Shown piece after piece: positions 4,297 through 62,827 of a stretch of DNA of 64,000 nt; within the stretch, counting starts at the first letter, position 1; each line of letters opens with the position of its first letter. Position numbers and translations under genes: made by a program. This DNA comes from an uncultured Candidatus Saccharibacteria bacterium (GTDB lineage Bacteria; Patescibacteriota; Minisyncoccia; Phycocordibacterales; PALSA-1337): assembly GCA_964565685.1 (NCBI GenBank), contig CAZMFR010000003.1:20709-84708 (forward strand), given 5' to 3'. The notes under the pieces were generated by a model, which saw nothing but the letters and a program-made list of their open reading frames with translations, was not told the DNA's origin and made no database searches.

Positions 4297-4374
4297 GATT
4301 AGTATAAAGTAGAAAGCATAAAGTAGAAAGTGGATATGATTTGCATTTTCTTTATGCTTTTCGCTTTCTACTTC
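4297..4374 (-). repeat. Copy A of an ~80-nt upstream element (AAGTAGAAAG words) directly abutting the start codon of the HEPN-like gene. It is homologous to 49607..49692.
   Basis: Aligned directly with 49607..49692 at about 75% identity. Shared words gtataaagtagaaag...aaagtagaaagtggata...cgctttct. Confidence 0.7.
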
Positions 4375-11684: not shown

Positions 11685-12464
11685 TTAAAAACTTCCGAAC
11701 AATTGCCATCCTGTCACCATGACCAGATAAAGACCCAGAATCAGGTATGGACCGAACGGGATCTGCAAGCCATGCTTGAACGAACGATAGACTGCCGCCA
11801 TATAGATAATCGATGCCAGAGCGCCTATCCAAAATGCCAAGGCAAGAGCCGTCAAACCGTACGCCAGACCGAGCATCCAGCCGATGCCGAGAATGAGCTT
11901 TGAATCGCCGAGACCCATCCATTCTCCATGCGAAACATACCAGAGCAAAGCAAATGGCAAGGCCAAAATAGGTCCGGCAAGGAGGCGTTGCATGCTCGGG
12001 ATTATAAAAGGGTGCGCGTCATTGCCGATGAATAATAGTACGAAAGTAGCGGCGATGAAAATATAAACCAGTGGATCCGGGATTATTTTGTGCTTTATAT
12101 CGTAAACAGTTATGACCATGAGTATGCACAGAATGAAAAGCTGAAAGGCAGTGACGATACTCGAAACCATTGTCACCGGCGGATAGAGTAGGAATATGAT
12201 GACGAACAGAGCACCGGAGAAAAATTCAACCAACGGGTATTGCCAAGAAATCTTTGCTCGACAGCCCTTGCAAACGCCCCGTTGAAAAGCAAAGGACAAA
12301 ATCGGTATGAGCTCCACCCAGGTCAATGTTTTTGCGCAAGACATGCATTTCGATCGACCTCGGATGCCGACGCCCGTGTTGTAGCGCAGGGCCAGGACAT
12401 TCAAAAAGCTTCCTATGAGCGTGCCGAGTATGAATGAGACGATGAGTATGAGATATGGCTGCAT
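11685..12464 (-). CDS. pilD: Prepilin peptidase (A24 family) with an N-terminal Cys-rich zinc-binding motif
   Basis: CxxC…CxxC motif, multiple TM segments, and typical PilD layout adjacent to pilins. Confidence 0.85.
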   Translation of the reverse strand: MQPYLILIVSFILGTLIGSFLNVLALRYNTGVGIRGRSKCMSCAKTLTWVELIPILSFAFQRGVCKGCRAKISWQYPLVEFFSGALFVIIFLLYPPVTMVSSIVTAFQLFILCILMVITVYDIKHKIIPDPLVYIFIAATFVLLFIGNDAHPFIIPSMQRLLAGPILALPFALLWYVSHGEWMGLGDSKLILGIGWMLGLAYGLTALALAFWIGALASIIYMAAVYRSFKHGLQIPFGPYLILGLYLVMVTGWQLFGSF

Positions 12465-13162: not shown

Positions 13163-14254
13163 TCATACGGCTTTCGGACGATTTTTGAACACCAGTTCTC
13201 TATATGCAAAGAAACTCTCAAAGCCAATGAGGATCGAGGCAAGTATTTGAGCGATCAAATAATGAAAAGAAAGAAATTGGACAAAAAGATATACGAGCAG
13301 TGTGTTGATACCAAGGTTACAAAGGGTTACAAGCAGATATGTCCCGGCTTGAATATGGATTTTTTCAACTTCCCTATCCTTGAATGTCCATAATTTTTGC
13401 AGGAAGAAGCTGACAAAGAAAGATAGGATGAAAGCGACGATAGCCGAGATCAGATACCATATTCCAAAAACCCTCGTCAAAAGCCAGAGCAAGAAAAGGT
13501 CCGTAGCCGCGCCCATGGCGCCAGAGACTATGAAGCGGATGATCCGCGATTCTTTGAAAGGAAAATTGAATCTTATGATCTTCCAGATCGCTTCGATGCC
13601 ATCGGAATAGCCGATCTTCTTGCCTTCTTTGGCTGTGCGGCCGACATAGCTTATCGGGACCTCTGCAACCGGCATTTTTTTAACAAGGGCTGTGACCTCC
13701 GGCTCTATGCCGAATCTATTTGAAGTAAGCCGGGAAGAGACATCATCAGAGACTTCTCGCGTCATCATCTTGTAGCACGTTTCCATGTCCGTTATATCCA
13801 TTCCGGTCAGAATATTGGAAAAAATCGTGAGAAATCTGTTCGCAAGATAATTCTTTTTCGACATTCCCGCCGGCTTTAGATTTTTAGAGAAACGAGAGCC
13901 ATAGACGATTTTCGCCTCTCCAGAGAGAAGCGGCGGCAACAGCTTGTTGTAATCCGTTGGATCATATTCCAGATCCGCATCTTGGATGACGACGAAATCT
14001 CCAGTCATCTCGAGAAGTCCTGTCCGCACAGCCGCTCCCTTGCCCTTGTTTTCTTCGTGCCGAATGATCTTGTAAATCGTAGAAGGATATCCGCTGTGCT
14101 CAGCCGGTAAAACCACTTTTTCCTTTGAAAAATCATCGACGATCATCACTTCCTTTTCGAGCCCGCCGACGAGATCGACATCGGCTATCTTTTTCAAGAT
14201 CAAAGGCAGAGTGCTATTTTCATTGAAGACGGGAATGATTATTGACAGCTTCAT
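13163..14254 (-). CDS. Family 2 glycosyltransferase (Dol-P/Und-P-sugar synthase-like) fused to a C-terminal GtrA-like 4-TM domain
   Basis: IIIPVFNE…VMIVDDFS…DADLEYDP GT2 motifs. The C-terminal ~120 aa is a hydrophobic GtrA-like region. Confidence 0.75.
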   Translation of the reverse strand: MKLSIIIPVFNENSTLPLILKKIADVDLVGGLEKEVMIVDDFSKEKVVLPAEHSGYPSTIYKIIRHEENKGKGAAVRTGLLEMTGDFVVIQDADLEYDPTDYNKLLPPLLSGEAKIVYGSRFSKNLKPAGMSKKNYLANRFLTIFSNILTGMDITDMETCYKMMTREVSDDVSSRLTSNRFGIEPEVTALVKKMPVAEVPISYVGRTAKEGKKIGYSDGIEAIWKIIRFNFPFKESRIIRFIVSGAMGAATDLFLLWLLTRVFGIWYLISAIVAFILSFFVSFFLQKLWTFKDREVEKIHIQAGTYLLVTLCNLGINTLLVYLFVQFLSFHYLIAQILASILIGFESFFAYRELVFKNRPKAV

Positions 14255-14274
14255 GGTTGAAATTATTCAGCAAA

Positions 14275-16059
14275 TTATTTGATAGAAGTAGAAGCAGTCG
14301 AGGTAGATTCCACTTCATAGATATATCTAGTGTCGTCCGTGAGGACGCGCTTCCAGCTATGGCTGTTGTCCAAAACATATTCGAGCGAAGAATAATCGCT
14401 CGTAGAAATGAGATATTTTGAATGAAAATCATTCAGTAGAACGCCGGCGATGGCACCTCCCTGATCTGCATACCATTTTTTCTGTTCCGTCACGCTTCCA
14501 TGCAGAGCATCATCCTTTGCGGTCTGCTGCGCATCGCATGTCTCCGTATCACAAACATAGCCATCAGTGCCGATATGCCACCAGAGCCAATATAATTGCG
14601 GGCTATAGACATATGTCAGCCGCGGCTCAAGACCGATTATATAATTATCTTGCGGCGCATAATAATAAAGCTCTGTGAACCAGCTCCAATTCAAGTTAAA
14701 AACTATGTCGCCGGGCTTTGTATTGTCATCTAGCCATGTGCCGACATTGCGCCATTCATCCGGTGAAGGCCCATTTCCAAAGAACTGATACAGATTTAGC
14801 CCGTTAGAGAAGCATAGGTATAGGACAGCGATCGACCCGCCGACAGCAAGCCCTTTCAGTATATATTTGTCTGAAATGGATACGAACTTTTTTATATCAT
14901 CAAATGAAACGGCTATATAAAGTCCGACAAACATGGCGAAATAATCGTTGAAGCGGGCGCTGATGACGAATACGCTCAATAGTATGCCGACGCACAAGAA
15001 GAATAGAGTCGTGCGCAAAACGTATGAGTCATAGGAATACGAGGCAATCTGTGAAGAGAGGCCTTCTTTTTTATACCTGATATATCGCGCCGCTTCGACT
15101 CCGGCGACAACGAGCAACGTGGCAAAGATATAAGTATTCGTCCTGACAAAATCAAAAAAATCGGTTGGATACAATTCTCCGCCCTCGGCGATGTTCACTT
15201 TCTTTCCGACGATGACATCCCAAAACACCCCCCAGATGTTGTCTTGGATATACAGAAAGAATCCAGGAGTCAAAAGATAGACCAGACCGACAGCTCCGGC
15301 CGTGCCTCCAGCGCATAATGCCAGATTCCTCCAATCGCCCTTGCCTTTGTAGAATCTCTCAAAGAGATAATAGACCAACGCTACGCCTAGCGGCAAGAAA
15401 AAAGTCGCTCCATGCCAGAATAGATAGCCAAAACTGATTATGAGCACGCCCCATCGGTTTTTCTTGTGCAAAAAATATAAAAGAAGAAGGAGGATCGCAG
15501 GCGTCAACGCATATGGTCTGGACAAGAATAGCCGGAATACCGGCGTCAAACTCGTCATTGCGAGGATGATGAGAACCCATAGAAACGGATACCTTACCTT
15601 GAACCTGCCGAGACACCAATAAAAGACGGTAAATGACAAAGCGGCGGCTATCACTGCATAGAGCTTTATCCCGAGGACGAGCGGCTGTATATAAGTGAAA
15701 GGGATTATGACCAGATAAAAAAGAAAATTGTAATAGATGAAATATTGGCTACCCTGCGCGATCTTTGTAAAATAGATCGATTTGAAATTGTAAAAGGAAT
15801 TGAAGAAGCCGTTGAAGCGCATCTCATAGGCAAACCGAAAATGGAAGAAATGGTCGTCGTTCGAGACTAATGTATTCAAGGAGAAATACATCAGGCAAAA
15901 AACCACAAAGAAAAGCGCGAATACCAATGCGGTCTTCAGCCATTCCCTCTTGTTCACATACCTCGCTATTGGCAAGATAATTGAAGAATAAAAGGGTCCA
16001 GATATCATCGCCGCAAATCGCCCTCCGCCATTCAGCCAATCCGTGATTTTCTGCATCAT
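14275..16059 (-). CDS. Large polytopic membrane glycosyltransferase (GT-C fold, ArnT/PMT/GtrC-like) with a C-terminal extracytoplasmic domain
   Basis: At least 12 predicted TM helices, 594 aa, and positioned directly after the GT2-GtrA gene, as in Gtr/Arn-type systems. Confidence 0.55.
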   Translation of the reverse strand: MMQKITDWLNGGGRFAAMISGPFYSSIILPIARYVNKREWLKTALVFALFFVVFCLMYFSLNTLVSNDDHFFHFRFAYEMRFNGFFNSFYNFKSIYFTKIAQGSQYFIYYNFLFYLVIIPFTYIQPLVLGIKLYAVIAAALSFTVFYWCLGRFKVRYPFLWVLIILAMTSLTPVFRLFLSRPYALTPAILLLLLYFLHKKNRWGVLIISFGYLFWHGATFFLPLGVALVYYLFERFYKGKGDWRNLALCAGGTAGAVGLVYLLTPGFFLYIQDNIWGVFWDVIVGKKVNIAEGGELYPTDFFDFVRTNTYIFATLLVVAGVEAARYIRYKKEGLSSQIASYSYDSYVLRTTLFFLCVGILLSVFVISARFNDYFAMFVGLYIAVSFDDIKKFVSISDKYILKGLAVGGSIAVLYLCFSNGLNLYQFFGNGPSPDEWRNVGTWLDDNTKPGDIVFNLNWSWFTELYYYAPQDNYIIGLEPRLTYVYSPQLYWLWWHIGTDGYVCDTETCDAQQTAKDDALHGSVTEQKKWYADQGGAIAGVLLNDFHSKYLISTSDYSSLEYVLDNSHSWKRVLTDDTRYIYEVESTSTASTSIK

Positions 16060-16224
16060 TATAGTCCTGTAAATATAGCACGACTGACGTAAACGACAAG
16101 AAATAATAGAATTACTTATAATCCAGCCATTATAAGAAAAAGTTTTTAAGAAAAGTTAAAATCGTGGGAACTTCTGTACAAGGTAGCACCTTGTACAAGA
16201 TTTTGACTTAAACACTGTAAATAG

Positions 16225-16692
16225 GATATTTTCCCCCCATGTCGCACAATAGTTCTTGTTAGTCTTCAATCAGCCAGAAAGAAGGGTTCCGATACGCGTG
16301 TTATAGCCGACGTACAGCAAGTCCGCGATGCTTTGGAAACGGGATCTACTGGTTCATCGTATCCAGATCTTAGTAACACCGCTTTGGGTACTACAGCAAA
16401 TACAGGAAATACTACTTACACTTGTTTTGTAAGCAATTGGATAAATACAGGTCCTCAGACCAGTGCAATCGCTGCGCAAGCCAATGATGCTTGTTCTCAA
16501 GGTACCACAAATGATATATCGATAGTTACTGGTAACCCCGCTGCACCTGCTACATCTGCAACAATTAATGCGTATGCCATTTACGGAAAGCTTGTTTCGA
16601 CTACAAATTATTTTTGTATAGATTCAAGTGGTCAAACCAATCCATCAGCGATAGCTCATGCTAGCTCTACTTGCCCTACGGCCGGTAACTAA
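16225..16692 (+). pseudogene. 5'-truncated pilin paralogue (silent cassette). It lacks the leader and N-terminal helix, and its first 74 nt are identical to an internal segment of the expressed pilin at 16774..17301.
   Basis: In-frame translation from 16225 gives IVLVSLQSARKKGSDTRVIADVQQVRDALETG…, matching residues ~30–60 of the neighbouring pilin. There is no start codon for that frame, and a stop lies at 16222-16224. Confidence 0.75.
16247..16320 (+). repeat. Left arm of a perfect 74-bp inverted repeat (partner 17143..17216)
   Basis: Base-by-base comparison shows the reverse complement of 16247..16320 equals 17143..17216 at 74/74. Confidence 0.9.
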
Positions 16693-16720
16693 ATTTCCAG
16701 GGTTAAAACGTGTATGTAAA

Positions 16721-16746
16721 CAAAAACCCCTCTCAAGGGGTTTTTG
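16721..16746. terminator. Bidirectional intrinsic terminator between the convergent pilin C-terminal regions
   Basis: AAAAACCCCTCTCAAGGGGTTTTT: a GC stem flanked by an A-run and a T-run. Confidence 0.7.
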
Positions 16747-16773
16747 TATGATTACGAGAAGTCTAAAGACAAA

Positions 16774-17301
16774 TTACATACAAGTTGTGCTAGCAGTACC
16801 AGGAGTTGGCTCAGAAGTACCTGTTCTTCCTGTCGAATCTATGCAGAAGTAGCCAGATGTATTACTAACCAAGTGCCCATATATAGCATAACCTACTACA
16901 GTAGTAGCAGAAGTACCTGTTGCAACGATATTTATATCATTCGTGCCACCTTGTTGGCAAGCATCATATGCTTGAGTATTAATCGCATTTACCTGAGAGC
17001 CAGAAGTACTCCAATCATAGACAGTGCAAGATGTATTCACTGGATTACCAAATGAAGTCGAACCGGCATTATTCGTACCGGCGGTGGTAGTAAGATCAGG
17101 ATAATATGAACCAGTGAACCCCGTCTCCAAAGCATCTCTTATTTGCTGTACGTCGGCTATAACACGCGTATCGGAACCCTTCTTTCTGGCTGATTGAAGA
17201 CTAACAAGAACTATTGATGACAATATACCAATGATGGCGATAACCACGAGCAATTCGATGAGGGTGAAACCGCCATTTCTATTTGCATTCATTTTTTTCA
17301 T
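16774..17301 (-). CDS. Type IV pilin (PilA-like) with leader MKKMNANRNGG|FTLIELLVV. This is the expressed partner of the invertible C-terminal switch.
   Basis: Prepilin N-terminus with a C-terminal Cys pair. Contains the right arm of the inverted repeat in codons ~30–54. Confidence 0.85.
   Translation of the reverse strand: MKKMNANRNGGFTLIELLVVIAIIGILSSIVLVSLQSARKKGSDTRVIADVQQIRDALETGFTGSYYPDLTTTAGTNNAGSTSFGNPVNTSCTVYDWSTSGSQVNAINTQAYDACQQGGTNDINIVATGTSATTVVGYAIYGHLVSNTSGYFCIDSTGRTGTSEPTPGTASTTCM
17143..17216 (-). repeat. Right arm of the 74-bp inverted repeat, lying inside the expressed pilin gene
   Basis: Identical to the reverse complement of 16247..16320. Confidence 0.9.
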
Positions 17302-17469
17302 TTAAATTAAAATTATATCTTTACTAATAATTAAGCTTATAATTGAGCTTTGCCCATCATTATACCAGCCATATACCCCATAAAGTCAAATGGGTTGTGG
17401 ATAACGCCTATATTATACCGTATTCGCCCATTCGTCTATCTATAAACGGCTACACCGCCTCGCGTTAGC

Positions 17470-18035
17470 CAGGATAAAGTGAAACTCCCCGACCTCACGG
17501 TCGGGGTTTCTTTTCATTCAAACAGCTTCGCTGTTTGCCCAGCGTCGTCTTGGCCTTGCTTTTCAATGTACTTGCGTATGATATCTTCGTTGATGCCGAC
17601 CGTCGAGACGAAGTAACCGTCTGACCAGAATTTGTCTGTGCCCCAATAGACTTTCCTGAGGAACGTGAATTTTTGCTTCATATCCTTTGCAGTGTTTTGC
17701 TTGATAATGCCAATGACCTTTCCCACGGCAGTTGTTGGAGGAATTGAAGCCAAGAGGTGTATATGATCTTCGTCGTGATTCTCGGTTTTGAATATGAAAT
17801 ATGGATGGTGTTCGGTGATCTCGCGAAGCTTCAATTCGAGATATGCAAAAATTCCTTCATTGATAACTCTTCTCCTGAATCTTGTCGTGATGACGATGTG
17901 GTAGTCGCAGTAATAGACTGCATGGCTCGTTTTTCGGTATTCCATGCTAACAGTATCCGTCAAGACGACGCTGGGGGCAACTGCATCCCTGATCTGACGA
18001 TCAGGGCATTAGTGTTGCAAGTAAATAGCGGCTTG
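17470..18035 (-). mobile_element. IS200/IS605-family element (boundaries approximate) with subterminal hairpins
   Basis: Encodes a TnpA. Hairpins CCCCGACCTCACGGTCGGGG (17486-17505) and CCCTGATCTGACGATCAGGG (17978-17997) flank the gene. Confidence 0.6.
17514..17963 (-). CDS. tnpA: IS200-like Y1 (HUH) transposase TnpA
   Basis: 149 aa with the HIHLL (HxH) motif and YCDYHIV…, typical of IS200 TnpA. Confidence 0.8.
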   Translation of the reverse strand: MTDTVSMEYRKTSHAVYYCDYHIVITTRFRRRVINEGIFAYLELKLREITEHHPYFIFKTENHDEDHIHLLASIPPTTAVGKVIGIIKQNTAKDMKQKFTFLRKVYWGTDKFWSDGYFVSTVGINEDIIRKYIEKQGQDDAGQTAKLFE

Positions 18036-18673: not shown

Positions 18674-18865
18674 TTATCCTCCGTTTTTTAATTGTTTCTG
18701 CAAAGTAATTGAGACTCTGCTAGTTGTTTGTGCTGTTTGACTTGACTAACTACCCACAATGCTATCACAAGTATAGTATAAAGTCAATAGCATGAGAAAA
18801 ATCCCTGCTTTAAGCCATAATCAGTCAAAAGTCCCTTGCCTGCCGATAGATATGAACAGCATGAC

Positions 18866-18926: not shown

Positions 18927-20135
18927 TTATTGCGCCTCCGCAATCGAATAAATCGGCACCAGAACCGAAGCCATGAGAATAGCCACGCCAACACCGAGGA
19001 CGACGATCATCAATGGTTCGATCAAATCAACGAGAGTGGCCACGGCATTTGTCACTTCGCGGGAGTAAAAGAGAGCCATAGTCTTCATGATAGGTCCGAG
19101 CTCGCCAGATTCCTCGCCCACTTTCATCATTTGGATCATAATACCTGGAATCTCGCCGGAGGCGGCTAGCGCTTCGGACATGGCTTTGCCTGTCTTGACC
19201 GCTTCGACTGCGTCAGCCAAAATGACGCGATATACTTCGTTATTGATGACATCAGAAGTCAGTTCCAATGCCCTGACCATGGGAATGCCGGCTTGGAGCA
19301 TAGTATTGATATTGTCGGCCAGACGCGACAGATAAAGTTTTTTATAGAGAACGCTGACATAAGGGATGTGGAGCTTCAACCGATCAAAAGCGATCTTGCC
19401 GCTAGGCGTGCGGATATAACGAAAGACAAAGAAACCGACGACTATGATGACAGCCAGGAGTATAAAGCCATAGCTGACCAGGAAATTCGATATGCCGAGT
19501 ATGACTTGGGTATAGATAGGTATGGCTACGCCAGAATCGGTGATAATACCGGAGATCTTTGGTATGACCATAGTAAACATAAGGATCATGACCGTTATGA
19601 AAGTCATGACGACGAAAGCAGGATAGACCAAGGCGCCCTTTGCCTTCGAAGTGAGCTCGTATGTGCGATCCAAGTAATCGGCCAAATATTGAAAGGTTTC
19701 GTCCAGCTTGCCTGACTCCTCGCCTGCCTTGATCATATTGACATAAAATGAAGAAAAGATTTTCGGATGCTTGGCCATAGCGGCAGAGATGGAACTGCCG
19801 CCCTGCAAATCGTCAGCGATAACAGTCAATTTTGCTCCGAGGACTTTGTTGTCGGTCTCGCCGGCGATCATGCGGAAAATACGCAAAGCGGAAACTTGGG
19901 CCTCGAACAGAGTCGACAGCTGACGGGATAGGATGACGATGTCTTTGGTTGAAACGCGATCGAACCATGAAATATTCATCGACAAAAAACTGCCTTTGCC
20001 AGTGGCCTCTTTTATCGACGATATGACGAGACCGCGTCGCTGAAGACCGGCTATAGCGACGTCGACATTGACAGCATCGATCGAGCCAGTCGCTTGTTCT
20101 CCCTTTTCATTTACGGTCGTGTAGTTAAATAGCAT
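18927..20135 (-). CDS. pilC: Type IV pilus / T2SS platform protein (GspF/PilC family)
   Basis: 402 aa with two T2SSF-like repeats and three TM segments. Confidence 0.85.
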   Translation of the reverse strand: MLFNYTTVNEKGEQATGSIDAVNVDVAIAGLQRRGLVISSIKEATGKGSFLSMNISWFDRVSTKDIVILSRQLSTLFEAQVSALRIFRMIAGETDNKVLGAKLTVIADDLQGGSSISAAMAKHPKIFSSFYVNMIKAGEESGKLDETFQYLADYLDRTYELTSKAKGALVYPAFVVMTFITVMILMFTMVIPKISGIITDSGVAIPIYTQVILGISNFLVSYGFILLAVIIVVGFFVFRYIRTPSGKIAFDRLKLHIPYVSVLYKKLYLSRLADNINTMLQAGIPMVRALELTSDVINNEVYRVILADAVEAVKTGKAMSEALAASGEIPGIMIQMMKVGEESGELGPIMKTMALFYSREVTNAVATLVDLIEPLMIVVLGVGVAILMASVLVPIYSIAEAQ

Positions 20136-20141
20136 AGCTGT

Positions 20142-21200
20142 TCATATTAATTTCTCTAATACTTTCGGATTAAGCGAGTGCAAATACGCGCTCTCGACTG
20201 TGATCTCGCCTTTTCTGACTAATTCCGCCAGATATCGATTCATGTCTATCATGCCTTCGGCAATGCCAGTCTCGATAACTGTAGGTATTTCATGAGTACG
20301 GCTCTCACGGATGAGATTTGATACGGCCGAATTGTTTATCAAGAGCTCACAGGCCGGTATCAAACCGCCGGAGATTCTCGGAACCAAACGCTGAGAAAAT
20401 ATGCCGTTCAAACTGCCGGCCAGCTGAACGCGGATCTGATCCTGTTGGGCGGCTGGAAAAGAATCGATTATACGGTCTATGGTCTGAGAAGCATTGTTTG
20501 TATGGAGAGTGGAAAATATGAGGTGACCGGTCTCAGCGGCAGTGACAGCCGTCGATATGGTTTCCGGGTCGCGCATCTCGCCCAAAAGGCACACGTTTAT
20601 GTCCTCACGGAACATAGAGGTCAGAGCGTCCGGAAAATCCGGAGTATCTGTACGGACTTCGCGCTGGTCAATAATAGATTTTTTTGATTCAAAGAGATAT
20701 TCGATCGGATCTTCGATGGTCAAAATATGCTCTGCCCGAGTTTGATTTATCAATTCGATCATTGAAGCGAGAGTGGTCGTCTTGCCCTGACCGATAGGTC
20801 CGACCAACAGGAAAAATCCTTGAGATTTTCTGGTAAAAGTCTCTAGAATGGGCGGCAGATTGAGATCAGCCAAGGTCTTTATGGTCTTTGGAATGAGACG
20901 CAGAGCGATAGAGATCATTCCTTGACGATAATATGCGTTGCCGCGAAAACGCGTATCGGAGAGATCATATGAAAAATCTACTGTACGCTTGGTTTCCAGT
21001 ATCTTTGCGTTCGACTCGGATAGGAACTGACCGAGAAAGCCCTTCATGTCGCCTTTTGATAGGACGGCTTTCTTGAAAAGAGGTATGAGAGCGCCAGCTA
21101 CGCGTATGATCGGCGGACGACCTTCTGACAGATGCAAGTCAGAAGCGTCTTCTTTGACTATGAGAGAGATAAGGTCTTGGATTTCTTGTTTATAGTCCAT
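20142..21200 (-). CDS. pilT: Twitching-motility-type retraction ATPase PilT
   Basis: Walker A GPIGQGKTTT, Asp box and His box. Its ~350 aa length is typical of PilT. Confidence 0.85.
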   Translation of the reverse strand: MDYKQEIQDLISLIVKEDASDLHLSEGRPPIIRVAGALIPLFKKAVLSKGDMKGFLGQFLSESNAKILETKRTVDFSYDLSDTRFRGNAYYRQGMISIALRLIPKTIKTLADLNLPPILETFTRKSQGFFLLVGPIGQGKTTTLASMIELINQTRAEHILTIEDPIEYLFESKKSIIDQREVRTDTPDFPDALTSMFREDINVCLLGEMRDPETISTAVTAAETGHLIFSTLHTNNASQTIDRIIDSFPAAQQDQIRVQLAGSLNGIFSQRLVPRISGGLIPACELLINNSAVSNLIRESRTHEIPTVIETGIAEGMIDMNRYLAELVRKGEITVESAYLHSLNPKVLEKLI

Positions 21201-21626: not shown

Positions 21627-23342
21627 TTACAGTTTATTCACTTCCTCAAACGGTATCACCTTCTGAAAAGCTTTTACGATAGCATCTTCTTTCATGGAAA
21701 GCATGCCTTTTTTGCGTAGAAGAGAGGAAATCGATAGTTCGGTCGGATCTTTCAAAATAGCATTCTCGATCTCTTTGTCCATTTTGAACATCTCGAAGAC
21801 AGCCATGCGACCACGAGTGCCTTTTGGACAGTCCGGTGTAGGCGCGATCTGATAGACAGTGTCGGCAAAAGGGATGTCTTTCTTGTACTCTGCCGGCAAA
21901 TCGGCGAATTGCTTGTCTATCATCATCTTTATCGAGCCATCTACTGGCATCGGCTTGCCACCGCCTGGAACCAACAGACTGACGAGACGCTGGGCCATAG
22001 CCAGGATCAGAGTCGGTGCGATGAGATATGGGTCGACGCCCATATCGATGAGACGTGGCACCACACCGGCGGCATTATTCGTGTGCAAAGTGGACATGAC
22101 GAGGTGACCGGTCAAGGCGGCCTGAATGGCCAACTGAGCAGTCTCCTTGTCGCGGATCTCACCGACCATGATTATATCCGGATCCTGACGCAGAGTCGTA
22201 CGCAAACCGGTAGCGAAATCATAGCCGATCTCCGGCCGGACCTGGCTTTGACTCACGCCTTCCATGTTATATTCAACAGGATCTTCCAGAGAGAGAACGT
22301 TGAGACCCTCCTTGTCTACTTCATTCAACATAGAATACAGCGTCGTGGACTTTCCAGAACCAGTAGGTCCAGTGATCAAGATCAATCCATAAGGACGATC
22401 TATGGCTTCCTTTAAAATATCGAGGTTTTTTGAAGACAAGCCCAGCTGGTCCATTTTCTTTACCCCTTTTTCCTGGTCAAGGATGCGCATTTCGACTTTC
22501 TCGCCATAAAAAGCCGGGAAAGTCGAAACACGGAAATCGATTTTCCTGCCGTCGATGCGCGCTGAAAAACGACCATCCTGCGGCTTTCTCTTTTCATCCA
22601 GACGCATATTCGAAACGATTTTGATTCGTGCGACCACAGCCGAATGGACTTGCGCCGGCAAGATGAGCGAGGTATTTAGAACGCCATCGACACGGAAACG
22701 GACACGCACCTTGTCATGTAGATGCTCTATGTGCACGTCCGAAGCATTACCCTCTGTAGCGTAGCGGACGATCGTGGCCACGATCTTCACTACAGGTGCG
22801 TCCTCTATTATAAAAGCGGCTGTTTTGGCCTCTACTTTTGCTTTTGACGTATCTATGGTTTGATCGACATCTACTGATAGCTCTGTCTCGAGCTCGGAGA
22901 GCGCCTTGGACACTTCCCCGCCGAGACCTTTGTATGACTCGAGTACTTTTTGGAAATCTTCCGGAGAGATCAGGAAAATCTTGTATGGGATGTTCTTTTT
23001 TGCGGCAATGAAGTTGAGGGCATCGCGGGCTTCGATATTGTCCGGATCTACTATGCCGACTTCCAACATGCCATCCTTGAAGCCGATCGGTACGAATTGA
23101 TAATGGGTAGCGCTTTCCTCCGGAATATAATCCAGGACATCAAAAGGAATGCTGTTTTCCGCCACGACGCGCGTCGGTATATTCAAAAATTCTCCGCGCG
23201 CAGCTAGGATGTCTTCTGGTTTTACACCAACAGAGATGAGGGCTTCGTCGAGCGAATCACCGTCAGCTTGTTTTGCTTTTACGGCTGAAACTCCGGCCTT
23301 GCTGATAAGATTCTTTTTTTGGAGGATGTCTAGAACGCTCAT
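21627..23342 (-). CDS. pilB: Type IV pilus assembly ATPase PilB/GspE with an N-terminal T2SSE_N domain
   Basis: Walker A GPTGSGKSTT, a tetracysteine-less GspE core, 571 aa. Confidence 0.9.
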   Translation of the reverse strand: MSVLDILQKKNLISKAGVSAVKAKQADGDSLDEALISVGVKPEDILAARGEFLNIPTRVVAENSIPFDVLDYIPEESATHYQFVPIGFKDGMLEVGIVDPDNIEARDALNFIAAKKNIPYKIFLISPEDFQKVLESYKGLGGEVSKALSELETELSVDVDQTIDTSKAKVEAKTAAFIIEDAPVVKIVATIVRYATEGNASDVHIEHLHDKVRVRFRVDGVLNTSLILPAQVHSAVVARIKIVSNMRLDEKRKPQDGRFSARIDGRKIDFRVSTFPAFYGEKVEMRILDQEKGVKKMDQLGLSSKNLDILKEAIDRPYGLILITGPTGSGKSTTLYSMLNEVDKEGLNVLSLEDPVEYNMEGVSQSQVRPEIGYDFATGLRTTLRQDPDIIMVGEIRDKETAQLAIQAALTGHLVMSTLHTNNAAGVVPRLIDMGVDPYLIAPTLILAMAQRLVSLLVPGGGKPMPVDGSIKMMIDKQFADLPAEYKKDIPFADTVYQIAPTPDCPKGTRGRMAVFEMFKMDKEIENAILKDPTELSISSLLRKKGMLSMKEDAIVKAFQKVIPFEEVNKL

Positions 23343-36639: not shown

Positions 36640-36704
36640 AAATGAATCACCCCACCGCAAGCGGTGAGGAATTCTATTGATTAAATAGGAACATTTAGAT
36701 AAAG

Positions 36705-40851: not shown

Positions 40852-40910
40852 ATTATATCACTTAAAAAGAAGCTTCGCAGTAAACCTTCTCGAACGTCGC
40901 CCTATCGTGT

Positions 40911-40953
40911 CCGCCCTCTAGGATTCGAACCTAGGACTCCAGAGGTATATGAT
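40911..40953 (-). repeat. Partial copy of the tRNA(UAU) 3' half (positions 34–73), beginning at the anticodon
   Basis: 40 of 41 nt identical to 40995..41036. Confidence 0.75.
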
Positions 40954-40994
40954 TACATATCGATTTTGCGCTCGCACAATATTGCAAATGTCCG

Positions 40995-41068
40995 TCCGCC
41001 CTCTAGGATTCGAACCTAGGACCCCAGAGGTATAAGCTCTGTGCTCTAACCAACTGAGCTAAGGGCGG
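40995..41068 (-). tRNA. tRNA with anticodon UAU (Ile, AUA-decoding type). No CCA is encoded.
   Basis: Reverse complement CCGCCCT-TA-GCTC-AGTTGGTTA-GAGC-A-CAGAG-CTTATAC-CTCTG-GGGTC-CTAGG-TTCGAAT-CCTAG-AGGGCGG-A. All stems pair. Confidence 0.75.
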
Positions 41069-41102
41069 ACACACATTTTCAACATGCACTCGCTTGAATC
41101 GA

Positions 41103-41139
41103 TAAGCTCTGTGCTCTAACCAACTGAGCTAAGGGCGGG
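41103..41139 (-). repeat. Partial copy of the tRNA(UAU) 5' half (positions 1–36), ending at the anticodon
   Basis: 37-nt identity with 41034..41070. Confidence 0.75.
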
Positions 41140-46915: not shown

Positions 46916-47146
46916 TTACTTACCATAAAGTTCTTTCCATACACGTCTCTCTCGAGCAAGCTTTCTCCTGTATTCTTCAAAATACTTGAACCTTAGCCCG
47001 TCTTTCGTCATCGGCTCAAAACCGAGCGCCCCTTCGGTTGTCACATGATTGAGAAAAAGCTTGATGCCGCCAGAAAGATCCGTACCCATGGATTCAAAAA
47101 CCTCCGAAGCTTTATCTTTGATCTCTTTATCGATACGGATACTCAT
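46916..47146 (-). CDS. DinJ/RelB-family antitoxin-like DNA-binding protein (orphan), trimmed to MSIRIDKEI
   Basis: SIRIDKEIKDKASEVFESMGTDLSGGIKLFL resembles DinJ. No toxin gene is adjacent. Confidence 0.55.
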   Translation of the reverse strand: MSIRIDKEIKDKASEVFESMGTDLSGGIKLFLNHVTTEGALGFEPMTKDGLRFKYFEEYRRKLARERRVWKELYGK

Positions 47147-47174
47147 AACTACCTGTTCCTGTGAGGAATTCATC

Positions 47175-47199
47175 ATATAATTGTATGACAATGTATATA
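47175..47199. promoter_or_regulatory. Palindrome copy 1 (TGACAATGTATATACATTGTAAA), a candidate operator
   Basis: Near-perfect inverted repeat 30–50 bp upstream of the DinJ-like start. Confidence 0.5.
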
Positions 47200-47375
47200 C
47201 ATTGTAAATCGCGACAAAAAAGTGAAGGGATCATGCCACTTGGCCACGATTGCGAACAACTATCATTTCATGCTTTTTGTTTTAACACAATTTTCTGCAC
47301 ATCTTTAAGGACAACCGGTTTAGTTTAAGCAGTGTGTATATGATGCGACGCGGGATGTACATGCTTTTAAACTGT

Positions 47376-47405
47376 ATGTTTACAATGTATATACATTGTA
47401 AACAT
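47376..47405. promoter_or_regulatory. Palindrome copy 2 (ATGTTTACAATGTATATACATTGTAAACAT), a perfect 30 bp
   Basis: Perfect dyad symmetry. Confidence 0.55.
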
Positions 47406-47627
47406 CACTCAAAATGAAGATCTCCCACTACCATCCATTTTTATCATCATTTTTATATTCGGTTTCTTCTCGCGCATACATATTTTCAAGCTTTTTCGGA
47501 AAGCACTTTTAAAAAACTCCTTTGTGGGCAAGTCCTTTATGTTTTCTCCATAGCGATGCAATTAAAATTCGAAAGTTTTTGCCGCAAACATAGGGACGAC
47601 GGGCGTCCTGTATTGTTTTTATAGGCA

Positions 47628-47659
47628 TGTTTACAATGTATATACAATGTAAACATTGT
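47628..47659. promoter_or_regulatory. Palindrome copy 3 (GTTTACAATGTATATACAATGTAAAC)
   Basis: Same motif with one mismatch. Confidence 0.5.
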
Positions 47660-47707: not shown

Positions 47708-48118
47708 TTAATTGGATATTTTTACCACACACTTTCTATGATAAATAGTGGCTGCCTTTAGAGATTCAGCTATCCAACCTCTTGAAACACATGCTTTTAT
47801 CAAAATCTTCCATTCTTCTGGTTCAAGACTTCGACCTGCTAACTTTGCTACGTGCATAGCGTCTCGCAAAAAACCGGCTTTAATGGAAGCTTTTAGGAGA
47901 GCTTCTTTTTCAGACGGCGCAAGCTCACGCCCAGCGAGTCGCGCAGCATTAATCGCAGATATGTAGCGTCCACTACGGATGCTATTCCTGATAAGTTTAT
48001 CAAGTTCGCGTGGTCTCAACTTCCTTCTTCCAAGGCTTGCAGCGATATGAGCATCAGCAGGCCTACCTTTTCTGACCAACATGGAAACAATCATATCCGT
48101 ACCAGCTTTACTAATCAT
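47708..48118 (-). CDS. Small helical-repeat hypothetical protein
   Basis: Internal repeats AARLAGRELAPSEKEALLKA and VAKLAGRSLEPEEWKILIKA. Confidence 0.35.
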   Translation of the reverse strand: MISKAGTDMIVSMLVRKGRPADAHIAASLGRRKLRPRELDKLIRNSIRSGRYISAINAARLAGRELAPSEKEALLKASIKAGFLRDAMHVAKLAGRSLEPEEWKILIKACVSRGWIAESLKAATIYHRKCVVKISN

Positions 48119-49606: not shown

Positions 49607-49692
49607 GAGTCAAGTATAAAGTAGAAAATGCAAAGTAGAAAGTGGATACGATATGTATTTCCTCTCTACTTTATAATTTTCGCTTTCTGCTT
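49607..49692 (-). repeat. Copy B of the ~80-nt upstream element, directly abutting the RNase J start codon
   Basis: Aligned directly with 4297..4374 (gtataaagtagaaa…aaagtagaaagtggata…cgctttct). Confidence 0.7.
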
Positions 49693-57341: not shown

Positions 57342-57972
57342 CTTGAATTTCCCCGTATCGCTACGGGCAATGGACTATATTATTACCTTTTCTTTTTAAG
57401 GATGAAGGTAGCTGACGTGTAGTCTCTACGGGCAGTTATGGGTTTTACAGAGCAGGCAATCAAAAAGATTGCCTGATAAATCTTCCTTGAGATGGGAGGG
57501 GACCGCTTTCCGTTCGATCAAAGTCAGAACTGCTTTGGAGGCAGTCATAAACAAAGATCGATCGGCTTAGATTTAAGGTCACGCCTACACCGGACCACAT
57601 AACCTGCGACTGAATTCCTGGTCGCAAATCCATCTGGCTCTGGACTATCCCATCTCAAGAAATCACAAAGAACTATTTTGCTCTGTAAAACCCATAATTT
57701 TCCCTAGGTGTTACCGCTGTTGCGTTCCCGCAATCAGGGCTTCACCGATATAAGTCAACTGTGTACAAAGGGATTTCTCCCAATGACCGCCGTGAACAAG
57801 TCACATTCAGTGGTGGTTTGTAATCACTGATCCTCGGGATTCAGACTGTGAAAAAGCCAAATCAAAACTCAAAAGGCAAAACTCAAAATTTTAAAGCCAA
57901 AAGCTTACTTATAAATTCAATTCATGAATTCTACTTTTGCACTTTGCATTTTGCCTTTCAACTTTGCTCCTT
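57342..57972 (-). other. Insertion 1 in 23S domain VI (~630 nt, no ORF), a putative self-splicing intron
   Basis: It interrupts the conserved …CTGTCTCACG | ACGGTCTGAACCCAGCTC junction, which is contiguous in E. coli. It contains 12–15-bp long-range complementary pairs (57440-57454 with 57679-57693, and 57485-57497 with 57646-57659). Confidence 0.6.
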
Positions 57973-58305
57973 CACGGTCTGAACCCAGCTCGCGTATCTT
58001 TTTAATTGGCGAACAGCCAAACCCTTGGGACCTTCTCCAGCCCCAGGATAAGATGAGCCGACATCGAGGTGCCGAACTCCGCCGTCGATATGAACTCTTA
58101 GGCGGAACTAGCCTGTTATCCCTAGAGTAGCTTTTGTCCGATAATCTTCCCCTGCATCTAATGCAAAAGGTCGGTTCACTTGGCTCCGCTTTCGCGTCTG
58201 CTCGACAAGTACGTCTCGCAGTCAGGCCAGCTTGTGCCCATACACTATCGCCACGGTTTCCATTCGCGGCTAGCTGACCATTAGGCTCCTCCGTTACTTT
58301 TTAGG

Positions 58306-59092
58306 CATGTTGTTACATGTTCAGGATCTTGTTTTCCTTTAAATGAATGACCCCGCCGCAAACGGTGAGGAATTCTATTGACTAGATTATTGGATTAAAA
58401 TTTAATCCAATAATTTAATTCATTTTAAAGGAAAACGGGGACGCTTGAACACGATGCGAACATTTCTGTCGCATTCTTGCGGTCGCCCGCAAGTTCGGAC
58501 TATATCATCATCCTTCGCCACAAAACGGCTCAGGATGGCTAGCGTGTAGTCTCTGGGGAAGCAAACTTATACATTGGATAATGGAAGTGACACGGAACCA
58601 TTCACATTCATCCCGTGTCACTAATGGTGTTAACTGATAATTTAGAAAACGGAGGTTTCGTTTACTCGATAAAGAGCACGATTAAGTGAAACCATTCTCG
58701 GATTTCCCTGAACAGACTCGTCGCCTGACCAGCATGTGACATCTGTGGGAAACAACCCATTTCTACCTAGTCTTCGTAGATCAATTACTTTCCATTATTC
58801 AATGTACAAGCAAGCCTTTCCTGCTGATCGTCTGCATGTAAATATTTTCACTCTTGCGAGTAACTTGCATTCTAAGCCATCAAAGGCACAGAGTTTCCAG
58901 CATATAGCTAACTTTTCGATGCATATTGCTATGCAAAGTCCTCCTTTTTTATAATTGGCAGCGAGGAGCGAAATGAAAATAAATTTTCTTTTCGTCCGAG
59001 CGAACCAATTATATCGATTTTAATCGATATTTTTTTGAGGTGAACACCTCGTGCGGCGCCACGGATCGAGGATTCAAACAAAAGTTTAAATC
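58306..59092 (-). other. Insertion 2 in 23S domain V (~790 nt, no ORF), a putative intron
   Basis: It interrupts …CTCCTCCGTTACTTTTTAGG | AGGATAGCGCCCCACTAAAACTGCC, which is contiguous in E. coli. Confidence 0.55.
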
Positions 59093-59599
59093 CTCGAGGA
59101 TAGCGCCCCACTAAAACTGCCCGCCAGATTCTGTCTCTGGCCGTTTTTGCCGGCCGGGTTAGAATATACATTCTTAAAGATTGGTGTTTCATCGTCGGAT
59201 CCACCTACCCCGAAAGGTAGACTTCAAATCCTCCCAACTACGCTACGCATCAAGAACGTATAGTCAAAATCAAGTTGCAGTAAAGCTTCTAGGGTCTTTT
59301 CGTCTAACTGTAGGTAATCGGCATCTTCACCGATACTGTATTTTCACCGAGCGAGTCTTCGAGACAGTTCTCCAGACGTTACACTTTTCAACGCGTCAGA
59401 ACTTACCTGACAAGGAATTGCGCTACCTTAGGACGATTATAGTTATCGCCGACATTCACCAGGGCTTATAGCACTCACCATCCTTCGCCTTGCGGCTCAG
59501 GACAACGGCGCTATTTGACCTTCTGGCATTGGTCAAGTGTCACCCCCTATACATCCTCTTTCGAGTTCGCAGGGAGCTGTGTTTTTGATAAACAGTCGC

Positions 59600-60025
59600 C
59601 AGAGAAACTTTAGCTGCGGCCCGCACCATAAAACTCTCTTTAACCTGTCCAATTAAGAACAGAAAAAGAGAAAGGGTGGGCTGACTTCAGGAACATGAAG
59701 GGAGTGGCTTGTACGGGCATGATTAGCCACCACTCTAGGATATATTTAACCCACGCTCGTCAAAGCGAGGCGCTAGCCACTGGTCAATGATCTTGCGACC
59801 AAATCCAGCAACTTGAGATGTGCCAAACATCAATTTAGTCGCGAAATCGCGATCAATTATGTTTCCGCTTGTCCTAATGCACACCTCGAACCGTTTACAT
59901 CGTTACATCACTCCCTAGGAAGTGACCGATGCCGTCCTTATTTCAGAGGACGTGAATCTCATCATGTGTGGATTTTATCCACTGTTTCCTGTTGTCAGCC
60001 CATACACTTTTAGCTCTCAAAAGAG
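59600..60025 (-). other. Insertion 3 (~420 nt) closed by a 13-bp helix CCCGCACCATAAA/TTTATGGTGCGGG, either an intron or an expansion segment
   Basis: Extra sequence between the conserved GTGTTTTTGATAAACAG and GCCGAAGTTACGGC blocks. Terminal complementary arms. Confidence 0.45.
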
Positions 60026-60600
60026 CTTTATGGTGCGGGCAGGCCTTATACCGAAGGTACGGCCGCTTTTTTGCCGAGTTCCTTGAAGACCTCTCACTCG
60101 TTCGCCTTGGGCTACTCGCCCTGACCACCTGTGTCGGTTTGCGGTACGATTTGTATGAAAATATACTTAGAAGATTTTCTCGGAAGCATGCTTGGCATGA
60201 TCAGTCCCGGCGAACCGAAACCTACCCACGAAGCTGTGAAGTGCCATCAAAGGCAGGAAGCGGATTTTCCTACTTCCCTCCATCGCTTTATGAACTCAAA
60301 TCCAATAACGAGCCATGCGTACTATGCTCCGTCCCTTCATCGTTTAACATACAAGTCACGGAATATTAACCGTGCTTCCATCGGGTGCGACATTTGTCAT
60401 CCCCTTAGGATCGACTAACCCTTCGCTGATATACATTGCGAAGGAAACCTTGGTCTTTCGGCGTGCGGGATTCCCACCCGCATTGTGGTTACTCGTGCCA
60501 ACATTCTTACTTCTACACGCTCCAGCATGGCTCACGCCTTTGCCTTCAACGCAGAGTAGAAAACTCTCCTACCGCTTGCGAACTTCATAGAGGAGGCAAG

Positions 60601-60825
60601 AAATAAATCTTGCCACAGACACTTTTACAAGAAAAATGTCAAGAAAAAGGAACTGGCGTCTGTGCACACAGGAATTGAACCTGCACCTCTCACTCTCAAA
60701 ACACGGAGTACCTTTGTTGTAGCCAAGCCACCCTGTTCTGACAGAGATCGTTGGCATCGCCGGCCTGTTGATGTTCCAAGAAACGACAGAGTATGCCCAA
60801 TACACCACTACACAGACGTAAATTT
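60601..60825 (-). other. Insertion 4 (~225 nt) in a hairpin loop, closed by an extended stem CTTGCGAACTTCATAGAGGAGG / CCTCTATGAAGCTCGCAAG
   Basis: E. coli has only a small loop here (from memory). Confidence 0.45.
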
Positions 60826-61711
60826 TCCTCTATGAAGCTCGCAAGCCCTCAGTTTCGGTACCATGTTTAAACCCCGATTATCTGCGGCGCGGAATCTCTC
60901 GATGAGTGAGCTGTTACGCTATCTTTCAATGATGGCTGCTTCTAAGCCTACATCCTCATTGTCGGAGAAATTCCACCACCTTAAGCGTACTTAACATGGA
61001 TTTAGGGACCTTAAATGGAGATCAAGGGCTGTTTCCCTTTTGTCCGGTGGAGCTTAGCCCCCACGGACTTACTGCCGCGCTATGATCCAGAGTATTCGGA
61101 GTTTGATAGGTCTCGTGACCTTTCGGCCTGTCGAGATCTTCCAGTGCTCTACCCCTCTGGGGAACGCGCGACGCTATGCCTAAACATATTTCGGAGAGAA
61201 CCAGCTATTACCAGGTTCGATTAGCTTTTCACTCCTTACCACAAGTCATCGCAGAGAATTGCACAACTCTAGCGTTCGGACCTTCCTCCCGGTTTCCCGG
61301 AAGTTCATCCTGCTCATGGCAAGCTCACCTGGCTTCGGGTCTTTAGCAACCTACTAACGCGCTATTCACACTCGGTTTCCCTGTGGCTCCGGTCTCTCGA
61401 CCTTAGCCTGCAGGTTGCTAAAACTCGTTGGCTCATTCTTCAATAGGCACGCCACAACGGACCGCACACTATGTACTAAAATTTTTATACTGGACATTAG
61501 GGCCGACTTAAAGGAGTCGGCTGTGGAACAACAGTCATTTGGATAGTTTTCGCTTGCGCGACGATATTTTTGACAAAATTTCTCGTGTCAAAATGAGTCC
61601 AAATAACTGTTGCCCACTGCTCAATACAAAAATCACTGTGCACACTGTGCGACCCGCCGTGACTCTTTGTAAGCATATGGTTTCAGGTTTATTTCAACGC
61701 CCTTACCGGGC

Positions 61712-61753
<42 letters not shown>

Positions 61754-62827
61754 TAGAAGAGTATTTTGCCTTGCCGGTTAGTTCCGGCGGATTCCCCCGA
61801 GCCATTCGTGTCTCGAGGTACTCAAGAACAGAAACAAAGAAGATTTTTTATTTTCGAGTACGGGGCTATCACCCTCTGGGGCTGTGCTTTCCAGCACATT
61901 CTCCTAACAAAAAATTTTGTAACTCCTCTGCCAATAAATTGGCACGTCTCTGCCTTACTACCCCCAATCTAAATCGAATCGCACGACATGTCGCACGATA
62001 CGATTTAGATTGAGTTTGGGCTGTTTCGTTTTCGCTCGCCGCTACTTGCGAAATATCTATTGATCTCTTTTCCTCCTGGTACTGAAATGTTTTACTTCCC
62101 AGGGTGCGCTCGTATGCTAATAGTGCATACGTCATAGAGGTTCACTCTATGGGGTTTCCCCATTCGGACATCTCCGGATCAAAGGTTGCTCGGCACCTCC
62201 CCGAAGCGTATCGCCGCCACGCTGCGTCCTTCATCGCCTCTTCTAGCCAAGGCATCCACCATACGCTCTTGGATTCCCGTCAGGAAATCCAAAAACCACA
62301 ATATATGCTTGCTTGACTCGGAGGCCGCTTACAACGGACCTCGAGTCATTTTTCTCGAATCACGGACAGTCTTCAACATATCCGTGATTCGTTATTTACA
62401 ATGCATCCTTATCCTCATGCGAGGACTGCTCCCTGATGTTTACATCAAGGGTTGTCCACAACTTATGAACAGACCTTGCTCACAAGCGGATCTCGGATGC
62501 TACCTTAATTTTCTTTTACTTTACCCTCCGACAGACGGCTAGTTCGCTGTCCATCGGAGTATTCTGTTGTCAAAGTTACAGTCTTTCCGCCATTTTTTGA
62601 ACAAAAAACCGCTTAACGAAGCGGCTACAGCACGCTCAGTGAAGAGTGCACTATGGCCGTGTTAGGTTGAGGTTTTTTAACATATCTTTCTGAATAGGGT
62701 AAGTATATACGAAGCCAAAATAAAGTCAAGGAAAATATGGGTTATTTCGCATAAGTTAATACTGCAAGACAAAGCTAGAATTTATTTAGACAATTTTGAG
62801 TGTGAAAAAATAGAATCGATAAATGAT

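Follow-up and report, generated by a model that had tools for sequence, protein, structure and literature searches.

The question raised by the pilin locus of an uncultured Candidatus Saccharibacteria bacterium (contig CAZMFR010000003.1, assembly GCA_964565685.1) is whether a complete type IV pilin gene and the truncated, promoterless pilin copy that faces it are the two positions of one DNA switch and, if they are, what turns it. The stretch analysed, referred to here as the window, is 64,000 nt long (positions 20,709 to 84,708 of the contig), and a preliminary description of its sequence had proposed that inversion of the 822 bp between the arms of an inverted repeat would fuse the N-terminus of the expressed pilin to the alternative C-terminal domain and park the current one. 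It is confirmed here that the pilin C-terminal domain is changed by DNA inversion, that the end points lie within the repeat, and that both states occur in nature.

The two perfect arms, IR-L and IR-R (Table 1), are identical over all 74 nt, as had been claimed. At 90% identity the repeat pair reaches 136 nt (16247-16382 and 17081-17216), with 698 nt between the arms, and the repeat finder returned no other long inverted repeat across the window. IR-R consists of 2 nt of codon 29 and codons 30-53 (IVLVSLQSARKKGSDTRVIADVQQ) of the 175 aa pilin. On the left, the frame of the silent cassette opens after a TAG at 16222-16224, passes in frame through the arm (...CRT-IVLVSL...QQ-VRDALETG...), and ends at a stop at 16690-16692. 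The cassette has no leader, no hydrophobic N-terminus, and no counterpart to pilin residues 1-29, so that a 175 aa pilin stands convergent and in frame with a homologous fragment of 148 aa. Beyond the repeat the C-terminal domains are 49% identical by BLASTP (61/125) and 56% identical over gap-free aligned codons, and all four Cys residues are common to both. The preliminary description of a leaderless, start-less domain read in frame from the left arm, about 55% identical to the expressed one and with its Cys pair kept, is thus a fair account of the locus.

The boundary of the repeat is sharp. There are no differences in the 24 codons inside it, while synonymous divergence (dS) between the two copies beyond it is about 1.5, which is saturated; the outer 62 nt of the invertible segment on each side (16321-16382 and 17081-17142) match at about 79%, with 13 mismatches. 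With synonymous sites saturated beyond the repeat and unchanged within it, identity by chance can be dismissed, and the arms in this species are therefore being homogenised. The earlier suggestion that such a boundary implies ongoing recombination or gene conversion was judged right on the same grounds.

The evidence on orientation comes from assembled consensus contigs, each of which carries one state. The product expected of an inversion, made of pilin residues 1-53 and the cassette from VRDALETG onward, was built and looked up by exact sequence. This 176 aa chimera was found residue for residue in public protein data (P0003; JGI and ENA), and the parked C-terminal part of the present pilin was found as a 118 aa open reading frame (ORF) on a 37.8 kb contig (P0002). 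Three contigs encode the chimera: k141_1802403 of ENA ERZ27249951 (L002), k141_694086 of ENA ERZ27249819 (L003), which comes from a strain without the IS200 element of the window, and Ga0455669_00005589 of JGI 3300042090 (L004). In all three, the 970 bp from 16247 to 17216 are 100% identical to the window but reversed against the flanks in the BLAST layout. The 10,709 nt of L004 have no mismatch to the reverse complement of the window in which 16321..17142 was inverted in silico, and L002 differs from the same construct by only two single-nucleotide polymorphisms (SNPs), at window positions 18864 and 19839. The flanks of the two states thus differ by 0-2 SNPs over 10-13 kb and, judged from this, the flip is recent.

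The state of the window is itself found in three further assemblies, JGI 3300041809, ENA ERZ27250145 (on a 116 kb contig), and ENA ERZ27249816 (on the 884 nt contig L171), so that the check for both orientations proposed at the outset was positive, with three contigs flipped and three not. The flipped state is present both in the clone that bears the IS200 element and in an IS-free strain of 99.65% identity. In this strain (L003), which is 0.35% divergent in an 8.3 kb flank, the 970 bp switch block is identical to that of the window, where about 3 differences would be expected; strains may have exchanged the block, or a sweep may have taken place. L171 was considered as a sign of a mixture of states within one sample, and this was rejected because its ends do not fit the break points expected of the assembly graph.

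Inverted repeats are classic sites of mis-assembly, and L171 ends near the right arm, so it might be asked whether the identity of the arms, or the second orientation, arose from mis-joining at the repeat. The final k-mer of MEGAHIT k141 contigs is longer than 74 bp. Such contigs carry each of the states, with junction k-mers that span the whole repeat and unique sequence on both sides, and mis-assembly is therefore very unlikely. Both states also recur in independent samples and through two pipelines (JGI and ENA), and the 970 bp block is 100% identical in six contigs (L001-L004 and L171 directly, the 116 kb contig by inference), which excludes the assembly collapse that had been named as a refutation of the proposed switch. 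Next to no credence can be given to an artefact.

The same contigs bear on whether the silent cassette is instead a donor for non-reciprocal gene conversion, in the manner of pilS and pilE in Neisseria. Like pilS, it is promoterless and lacks the N-terminal region, and the homogenised repeat shows that conversion does occur. The alternative state is nevertheless reciprocal: the displaced C-terminal domain is kept, reversed, at the position of the cassette, and the 970 bp block is intact, while no contig carries the alternative domain at both positions. A role as conversion donor is accordingly a poor candidate for what is seen here, and an improbable one.

Among six related loci, a cassette is present in two further species, represented by L167 and L168 (JGI 3300046673 and 3300046697) and by L170 and L176 (ENA ERZ25039521 and Logan ERR11630394); at L165, L166, and L169 the pilin gene has no cassette beside it. 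In these relatives the leaderless cassette is again convergent with the pilin, and the two lie between a PilB-PilT-PilC block and a 592-594 aa membrane protein with a GT2-GtrA gene. The left junction, GTCGCA/CAATAG (that is, GTCGCA/CAATAGTTCTTGTTAGTCTT), is common to the cassettes of the window, L167/L168, and L170/L176, and the truncated copy therefore predates the divergence of the three species. The state of the repeat differs between them. In L167/L168 the arms are 84.5% identical over 71 nt and perfect only over the first 23-25 nt, being about 80% identical beyond these, and in L170/L176 they are 82% identical with a longest perfect run of 14 nt, because the expressed gene of L170 uses other codons. 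Both states are found in the window species, in which the perfect run is 74 nt, and a single state in each of the relatives (2/2 contigs in both cases). The chimeras predicted for L167 and L170 were absent from the databases by exact look-up, where only two contigs exist per species.

The cassettes are intact ORFs in all three species. In pairwise codon comparisons of the head domains, the ratio of nonsynonymous to synonymous divergence (dN/dS) is 0.06-0.36 with saturated dS (>1.2), whether or not a cassette is involved, and between the L170 cassette and the expressed L165 pilin the identity is 71%. By these comparisons the cassettes are under purifying selection and the arrangement is old and in use; the parked copies are kept as functional pilin domains, which can be understood only with occasional expression. 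A separate full-length pilin of L165 (P0047) ends in ...NPSAIAHSSSTCPTAGN, almost identical to the tail of the window cassette at 16620-16692, while the rest is about 47% identical, which suggests that parts of pilins travel from gene to gene and between species.

Searches further afield added little. The cassette C-terminal domain alone, used as a protein query, gave only 3 matches, being too variable for the word index. A family-alignment scan of genome and metagenome contigs, which settled on generic FTLIELLVV and IAIIGIL patterns, yielded 160 pilin loci of many phyla, most of them unrelated, and no close relatives; high-identity inverted repeats overlapping pilin genes were rare among these by self-BLAST. 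One of them, L146, was considered as a C-terminal swap and rejected, as its repeat element flanks a high-GC pseudopilin gene.

It could be supposed that the two orientations are a one-off or rare structural polymorphism, produced by accidental inversion between the pilin gene and a decaying pseudogene fragment that has no programmed role. There is one state per consensus contig, and a single event followed by drift or a sweep could give three contigs of each. This is unlikely, as a decaying fragment would not be expected to remain an intact ORF in three species with the dN/dS values given above. The reading frame also runs through the repeat so that both fusions are full pilins that model well, the flanks are identical between the states apart from the SNPs listed, the flipped state is found in the IS200 clone and in the IS-free strain alike, and the perfect repeat beside saturated sites implies repeated exchange.

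In the switch proposed here, the promoter, the leader, and codons 1-29 would be the fixed parts. Reciprocal recombination between the two 74 bp arms would turn the 822 bp segment around, joining the N-terminus in frame to one or other of the two heads, while the other head would lie unexpressed on the far side of the bidirectional terminator that the two share. A given cell lineage would then show one of two pilus surfaces, with no information lost. General homologous recombination of the RecA type would make the exchange, using the long perfect repeat as its substrate, gene conversion would maintain the identity of the arms, and the purpose would be bet-hedging against whatever recognises the pilus, be it phage, the specificity of a host cell or partner, or grazers. 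That homology-driven exchange performs the inversion is the favoured reading, held with middling confidence. It is favoured because the repeat (74 bp perfect, 136 bp at 90%) far exceeds the core site of a recombinase, because there is no dyad-symmetric core and no linked recombinase in three species, and because only the species with the perfect repeat shows both states.

The search for a recombinase covered 39 ORFs of the window, scanned with Pfam, the remaining ORFs being annotated through identical loci. No resolvase, phage-integrase, or DEDD/IS110 (Piv) domain was found in the ORFs so scanned or annotated. No recombinase is present in the 10 kb beyond the right end of the window, where a ribosomal-protein operon with SecY is located, nor in the 12-16 kb around the loci of L167 and L170. 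To the left, the only overlapping sequence obtained was a 10 kb Logan contig that stops close to the start of the window. That no invertase gene is adjacent, as first described, is borne out by the Pfam scans, the identical loci, and the 10 kb extension. The IS200 TnpA is a single-strand HUH transposase and is unlikely to be the invertase, since the element is absent from the flipped L003 and from the cassette-bearing relatives.

Several points weigh against homology-driven switching. The one-state result in the relatives with degenerate repeats rests on 2 assemblies for each, and a single recent inversion that spread could, strictly, explain the contigs. Neither a flipping enzyme nor recA was found within the window. 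Repeats of only 74 bp serve RecA-dependent inversion poorly. Over its outermost 20-25 nt the repeat is identical in 5/6 arms across three species, and this is the sole perfect part in L167; such conservation of a core looks more like that of a recombinase site than like a by-product of homologous recombination.

These last observations suggest an alternative in which the same inversion is made by a site-specific recombinase that is encoded elsewhere and acts on the outer core CAATAGTTCTTGTTAGTCTT, the rest of the repeat being conserved coding sequence that travels with each cassette. The core is the first 20 nt of IR-L and is conserved in the cassettes of the three species (L167, L168, L170, L176, and the window); the arms in which it is identical are those of the window gene, the window cassette, the L167 gene, the L167 cassette, and the L170 cassette. 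The pilin genes without a partner cassette (L165, L166, and L169) and the L170 gene encode the same IVLVSL with 6-9 different bases (5-10 in a second count), so the conservation of the core is at the nucleotide and not the protein level. By a rough, hand-computed estimate, chance alone would keep the differences between arms out of the core with odds of 0.007-0.07 per comparison. Other phyla have master invertases that are not linked to their targets, and the candidates here would be a global invertase of the Bacteroides Mpi type, a tyrosine recombinase of the Xer family, or a DEDD enzyme like those of IS110 and Piv. Against such an enzyme stand the lack of a recombinase gene in the 64 kb window, in the further 10 kb, and at the relatives' loci, and the absence of the L167 and L170 chimeras from databases with two contigs for each species. 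No imperfect palindrome (arms of at least 7 nt, at least 78%) was found within the 74 nt repeat, which has no dyad-symmetric or Hin-like core and thus lacks the symmetry of serine and tyrosine recombinase sites. No further copy of CAATAGTTCTTGTTAGTCTT, as might mark a regulon, occurs elsewhere in the window, and among viral contigs the core gave one chance match, outside any pilin. A programmed, site-specific switch with the 20 nt core as its crossover site, turned by a housekeeping Xer, a distant master invertase, or an unrecognised class of enzyme that is not linked to the locus, is regarded as less likely than homology-driven exchange but as a serious rival to it.

Table 1. Features of the pilin locus and its surroundings, with positions in the window.
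Feature	Position	Strand	Remarks
IR-L, left perfect arm	16247..16320	+	forms the 5' end of the cassette; matches the reverse complement of 17143-17216 at 74/74
IR-R, right perfect arm	17143..17216	-	within the expressed pilin gene, C-terminal half of helix alpha-1
Invertible segment, 822 bp	16321..17142		coding regions of the two C-terminal alternatives, with the terminator that they share
Type IV pilin gene, currently expressed state, 175 aa	16774..17301	-	prepilin motif G/FTLIE; PF07963; TIGR02532
Silent promoterless, leaderless pilin cassette	16225..16692	+	homologous to pilin residues 29-175; in frame through IR-L
Hairpin AAAAA-CCCCTCTCAAGGGG-TTTTT	16722..16745		separates the convergent ORFs; called terminator-like on the - strand
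Candidate pilin promoter TTGACT-N19-TGgTATAAT	17359..17389	-	found by eye; fixed side, outside the invertible segment
IS200, Y1 TnpA only, 542 nt	17481..18022	-	end hairpins 17487-17506 and 17987-18006
PilD-type A24 peptidase	11685-12464		Pfam
Platform protein (T2SSF)	18927-20135		Pfam
Pilus ATPases	20142-21200 and 21627-23342		Pfam

The assignment of the switched gene as a type IV pilin is supported by several features. The start reads ...NRNGG/FTLIELLVV..., with matches to PF07963 (E=3e-9) and TIGR02532, so that, as in class III signal peptides, the leader ends in Gly and is followed by F at +1, Glu at +5, and a hydrophobic alpha-1 helix. The family profile matches the alpha-1 helix of solved pilins in a profile search of the PDB. 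In the predicted structures of both pilin products a helix is present at residues 14-60, and the model of the current pilin has a four-stranded sheet, at a predicted local distance difference test (pLDDT) score of 81. The globular alpha/beta head with its antiparallel sheet and C-terminal disulfide is that of a type IV pilin, and both products of the inversion are, in these models, folded as pilins. Homologues of the pilin bear names such as Paceibacterota, Parcubacteria, and Minisyncoccia, and these names, the group I intron in the 23S rRNA gene, and the gene content all indicate a bacterium of the Patescibacteria/Paceibacteria type.

A bidirectional terminator between the two C-terminal domains had been described, and a symmetric A5-stem-T5 hairpin is indeed present there. 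The tool call was for the - strand only, the symmetry being read directly from the sequence, and the hairpin should serve as a bidirectional terminator for whichever cassette is expressed. The candidate promoter was passed over by the consensus scan because its spacer is 19 nt; that it is the promoter of the pilin is inferred from the sequence.

The switchable pilin is surrounded by genes for PilD, PilC, PilT, PilB, and further pilins, as identified with Pfam, and PilM and PilO are present in the identical locus L003, so that the peptidase and the assembly machinery of a type IV pilus are both encoded here. The TnpA ORF of the IS200 element (17514-17963; Y1_Tnp, E=5e-28) is the only mobile-element enzyme among the annotated ORFs of the window. 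Its insertion is polymorphic, L003 having the empty site GATAAAGT/AAATAGCGG, and as the flipped L003 lacks the element it does not belong to the switch. The contig from which L004 was taken stops exactly where the IS200 element has its edge.

At 13163-16059, and likewise in L165, L167, and L170, a 594 aa polytopic membrane protein, for which Pfam, NCBIfam, and the PDB gave no match, is encoded beside a GT2-GtrA fusion resembling polyprenyl-phosphate sugar transferases (AglJ/ArnC-like). The pair adjoins the switchable pilin in every relative examined and may be a candidate pilin-glycosylation module. If the pair does glycosylate the pilin, the switch could, speculatively, also alter the glycosylation pattern.

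Other repeats and insertions were seen elsewhere in the window. The 23S rRNA gene at 57921-62279 spans 4359 nt, against 2925 nt for the model, with small ORFs in its insertions and a group I intron at 58476-59012, which is typical of bacteria of the Candidate Phyla Radiation (CPR). A 47 nt repeat containing a hairpin occurs beside this intron in the 23S region (58341-58387) and also after a 140 aa ORF (36640-36686), the two copies being 89% identical. The 30 nt palindrome ATGTTTACAATGTATATACATTGTAAACAT is present twice, 251 nt apart (47346-47405 and 47597-47656), between a RelB-like antitoxin gene (46916-47191) and an unannotated 136 aa ORF (47708-48118), and these copies look like operator sites. 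On either side of a tRNA-Ile gene (40994-41068, anticodon tat) there is a partial copy of it, one at 40909-40949 with 98% identity and one at 41102-41138 with 100% over 37 nt, possibly scars left by integration into the tRNA gene or excision from it. A 60 nt A/G-rich repeat of 82% identity (4301-4360 and 49613-49672) directly precedes two unrelated genes, with weaker copies before the minor pilin genes at 10014 and 10815, and these genes may have a promoter or leader element in common.

Patescibacteria (CPR) have kept few elaborate surface machines, and type IV pili, which belong to these, are thought to mediate attachment to host cells and the uptake of DNA, on which these reduced organisms depend. 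A reversible head switch that preserves information would offer such organisms bet-hedging or antigenic variation of their main contact organelle. What is described is an inversion switch for the pilin C-terminus that is reduced to a minimum, is conserved in a CPR lineage, and has no invertase at the locus. Two half-genes and one terminator fit into 0.8 kb and no enzyme is encoded locally, which makes it a very compact natural model in which to study inversion switching where the recombination toolkit of the genome is minimal; if the site-specific reading were true, minimal genomes would be running surface variation with shared trans-acting machinery. There is also a consequence for annotation: what look like pilin "alleles" when metagenome-assembled genomes of these lineages are compared may be phase states and not strain differences, and the truncated downstream ORFs annotated as "hypothetical protein" are parked pilin halves.

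In the literature searched, nothing was found on pilin inversion, invertons, or phase variation in Patescibacteria or CPR, and "Patescibacteria" and "Candidate Phyla" had no text match in PMC9881135 or in bioRxiv 10.1101/2023.03.11.532203. The locus does resemble switches described in other bacteria, to different degrees. The preliminary description had equated it with the Piv-mediated pilin inversion of Moraxella, and this holds for the architecture but not for the enzyme, since no DEDD/IS110 domain was found. According to PMC9585708 and PMC11868660, the latter citing Marrs 1988, the pilin genes of Moraxella bovis and M. lacunata (tfpQ/tfpI, pilA) are inverted by Piv, and both phases coexist in populations. 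As in Moraxella, there is one fixed promoter and N-terminal region, the inverted repeat is inside the conserved N-terminal coding part, inversion exchanges the C-terminal part of the pilin for an oppositely oriented alternative downstream, and both orientations are present in the natural population, here at the level of assemblies. The Moraxella invertible segment is about 2 kb and carries an extra gene, whereas that of the window is 0.82 kb and holds only two half-genes and a terminator. Unlike in Moraxella, there is no piv gene (DEDD, related to IS110/IS492) at or near the locus, the host is of the uncultured small-genome Patescibacteria type and not a proteobacterial pathogen, and the pilins themselves are related to those of Moraxella through the generic N-terminus only.

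The locus also shares the form of the gene-altering inversions, or partial intergenic invertons (shufflon-type), catalogued in PMC9881135 and by Chanin et al. (bioRxiv 10.1101/2023.03.11.532203), in that a full gene and a shorter, promoterless, inverted copy share a repeat, and the domain exchanged is the one that determines specificity. In Milman et al. 2023 (PMC9881135), "Pilin" is enriched among the predicted targets of programmed inversion, with an odds ratio of 8.4, and the features set out there as marking such loci, namely size asymmetry, opposite orientation, a repeat within the coding sequence, and in-frame exchange, are all found at the locus of the window. No recombinase was found here or around L167 and L170, which is unlike the usual case. 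To our knowledge, the gene-altering inversions described so far have a recombinase gene at or near the locus.

In the shufflon of R64/IncI plasmids, in which Rci acts on the C-termini of PilV, inversion similarly alters the C-terminal segment of a type IV pilus protein, and with it the binding of the pilus. The R64 shufflon has several segments, 19 bp sfx sites, and an adjacent rci gene for a tyrosine recombinase, and its target is a minor tip adhesin (Komano 1999, cited in PMC11868660). The present locus differs in having one segment, one pair of 74 bp repeats, and no phage-integrase domain found in the window, and its target looks to be of the PilA type, with its own promoter and terminator. 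Serine-invertase systems (Hin, Gin, Cin, and Min) have an adjacent gene of the resolvase family and dyad-symmetric crossover sites of about 26 bp, and in contrast the window has neither a detected resolvase domain nor a palindromic core in the 74 nt repeat.

A possible analogue of the mechanism is the sap S-layer locus of Campylobacter fetus, where alternative promoterless cassettes for a surface protein share a conserved, inverted 5' region and reach a single promoter by RecA-dependent inversion, without an invertase. The homology in sap is several hundred bp and there are many cassettes, against 74-136 bp and two cassettes here. With Neisseria pilE and pilS the locus shares a silent copy without promoter and N-terminal region, and the exchange of the head while the N-terminus stays constant. 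In the classification of PMC11868660, pilE/pilS is a contingency locus and not a case of phase variation. Where Neisseria draws on many pilS copies by non-reciprocal conversion, the exchange in the window appears reciprocal, reversible, and binary.

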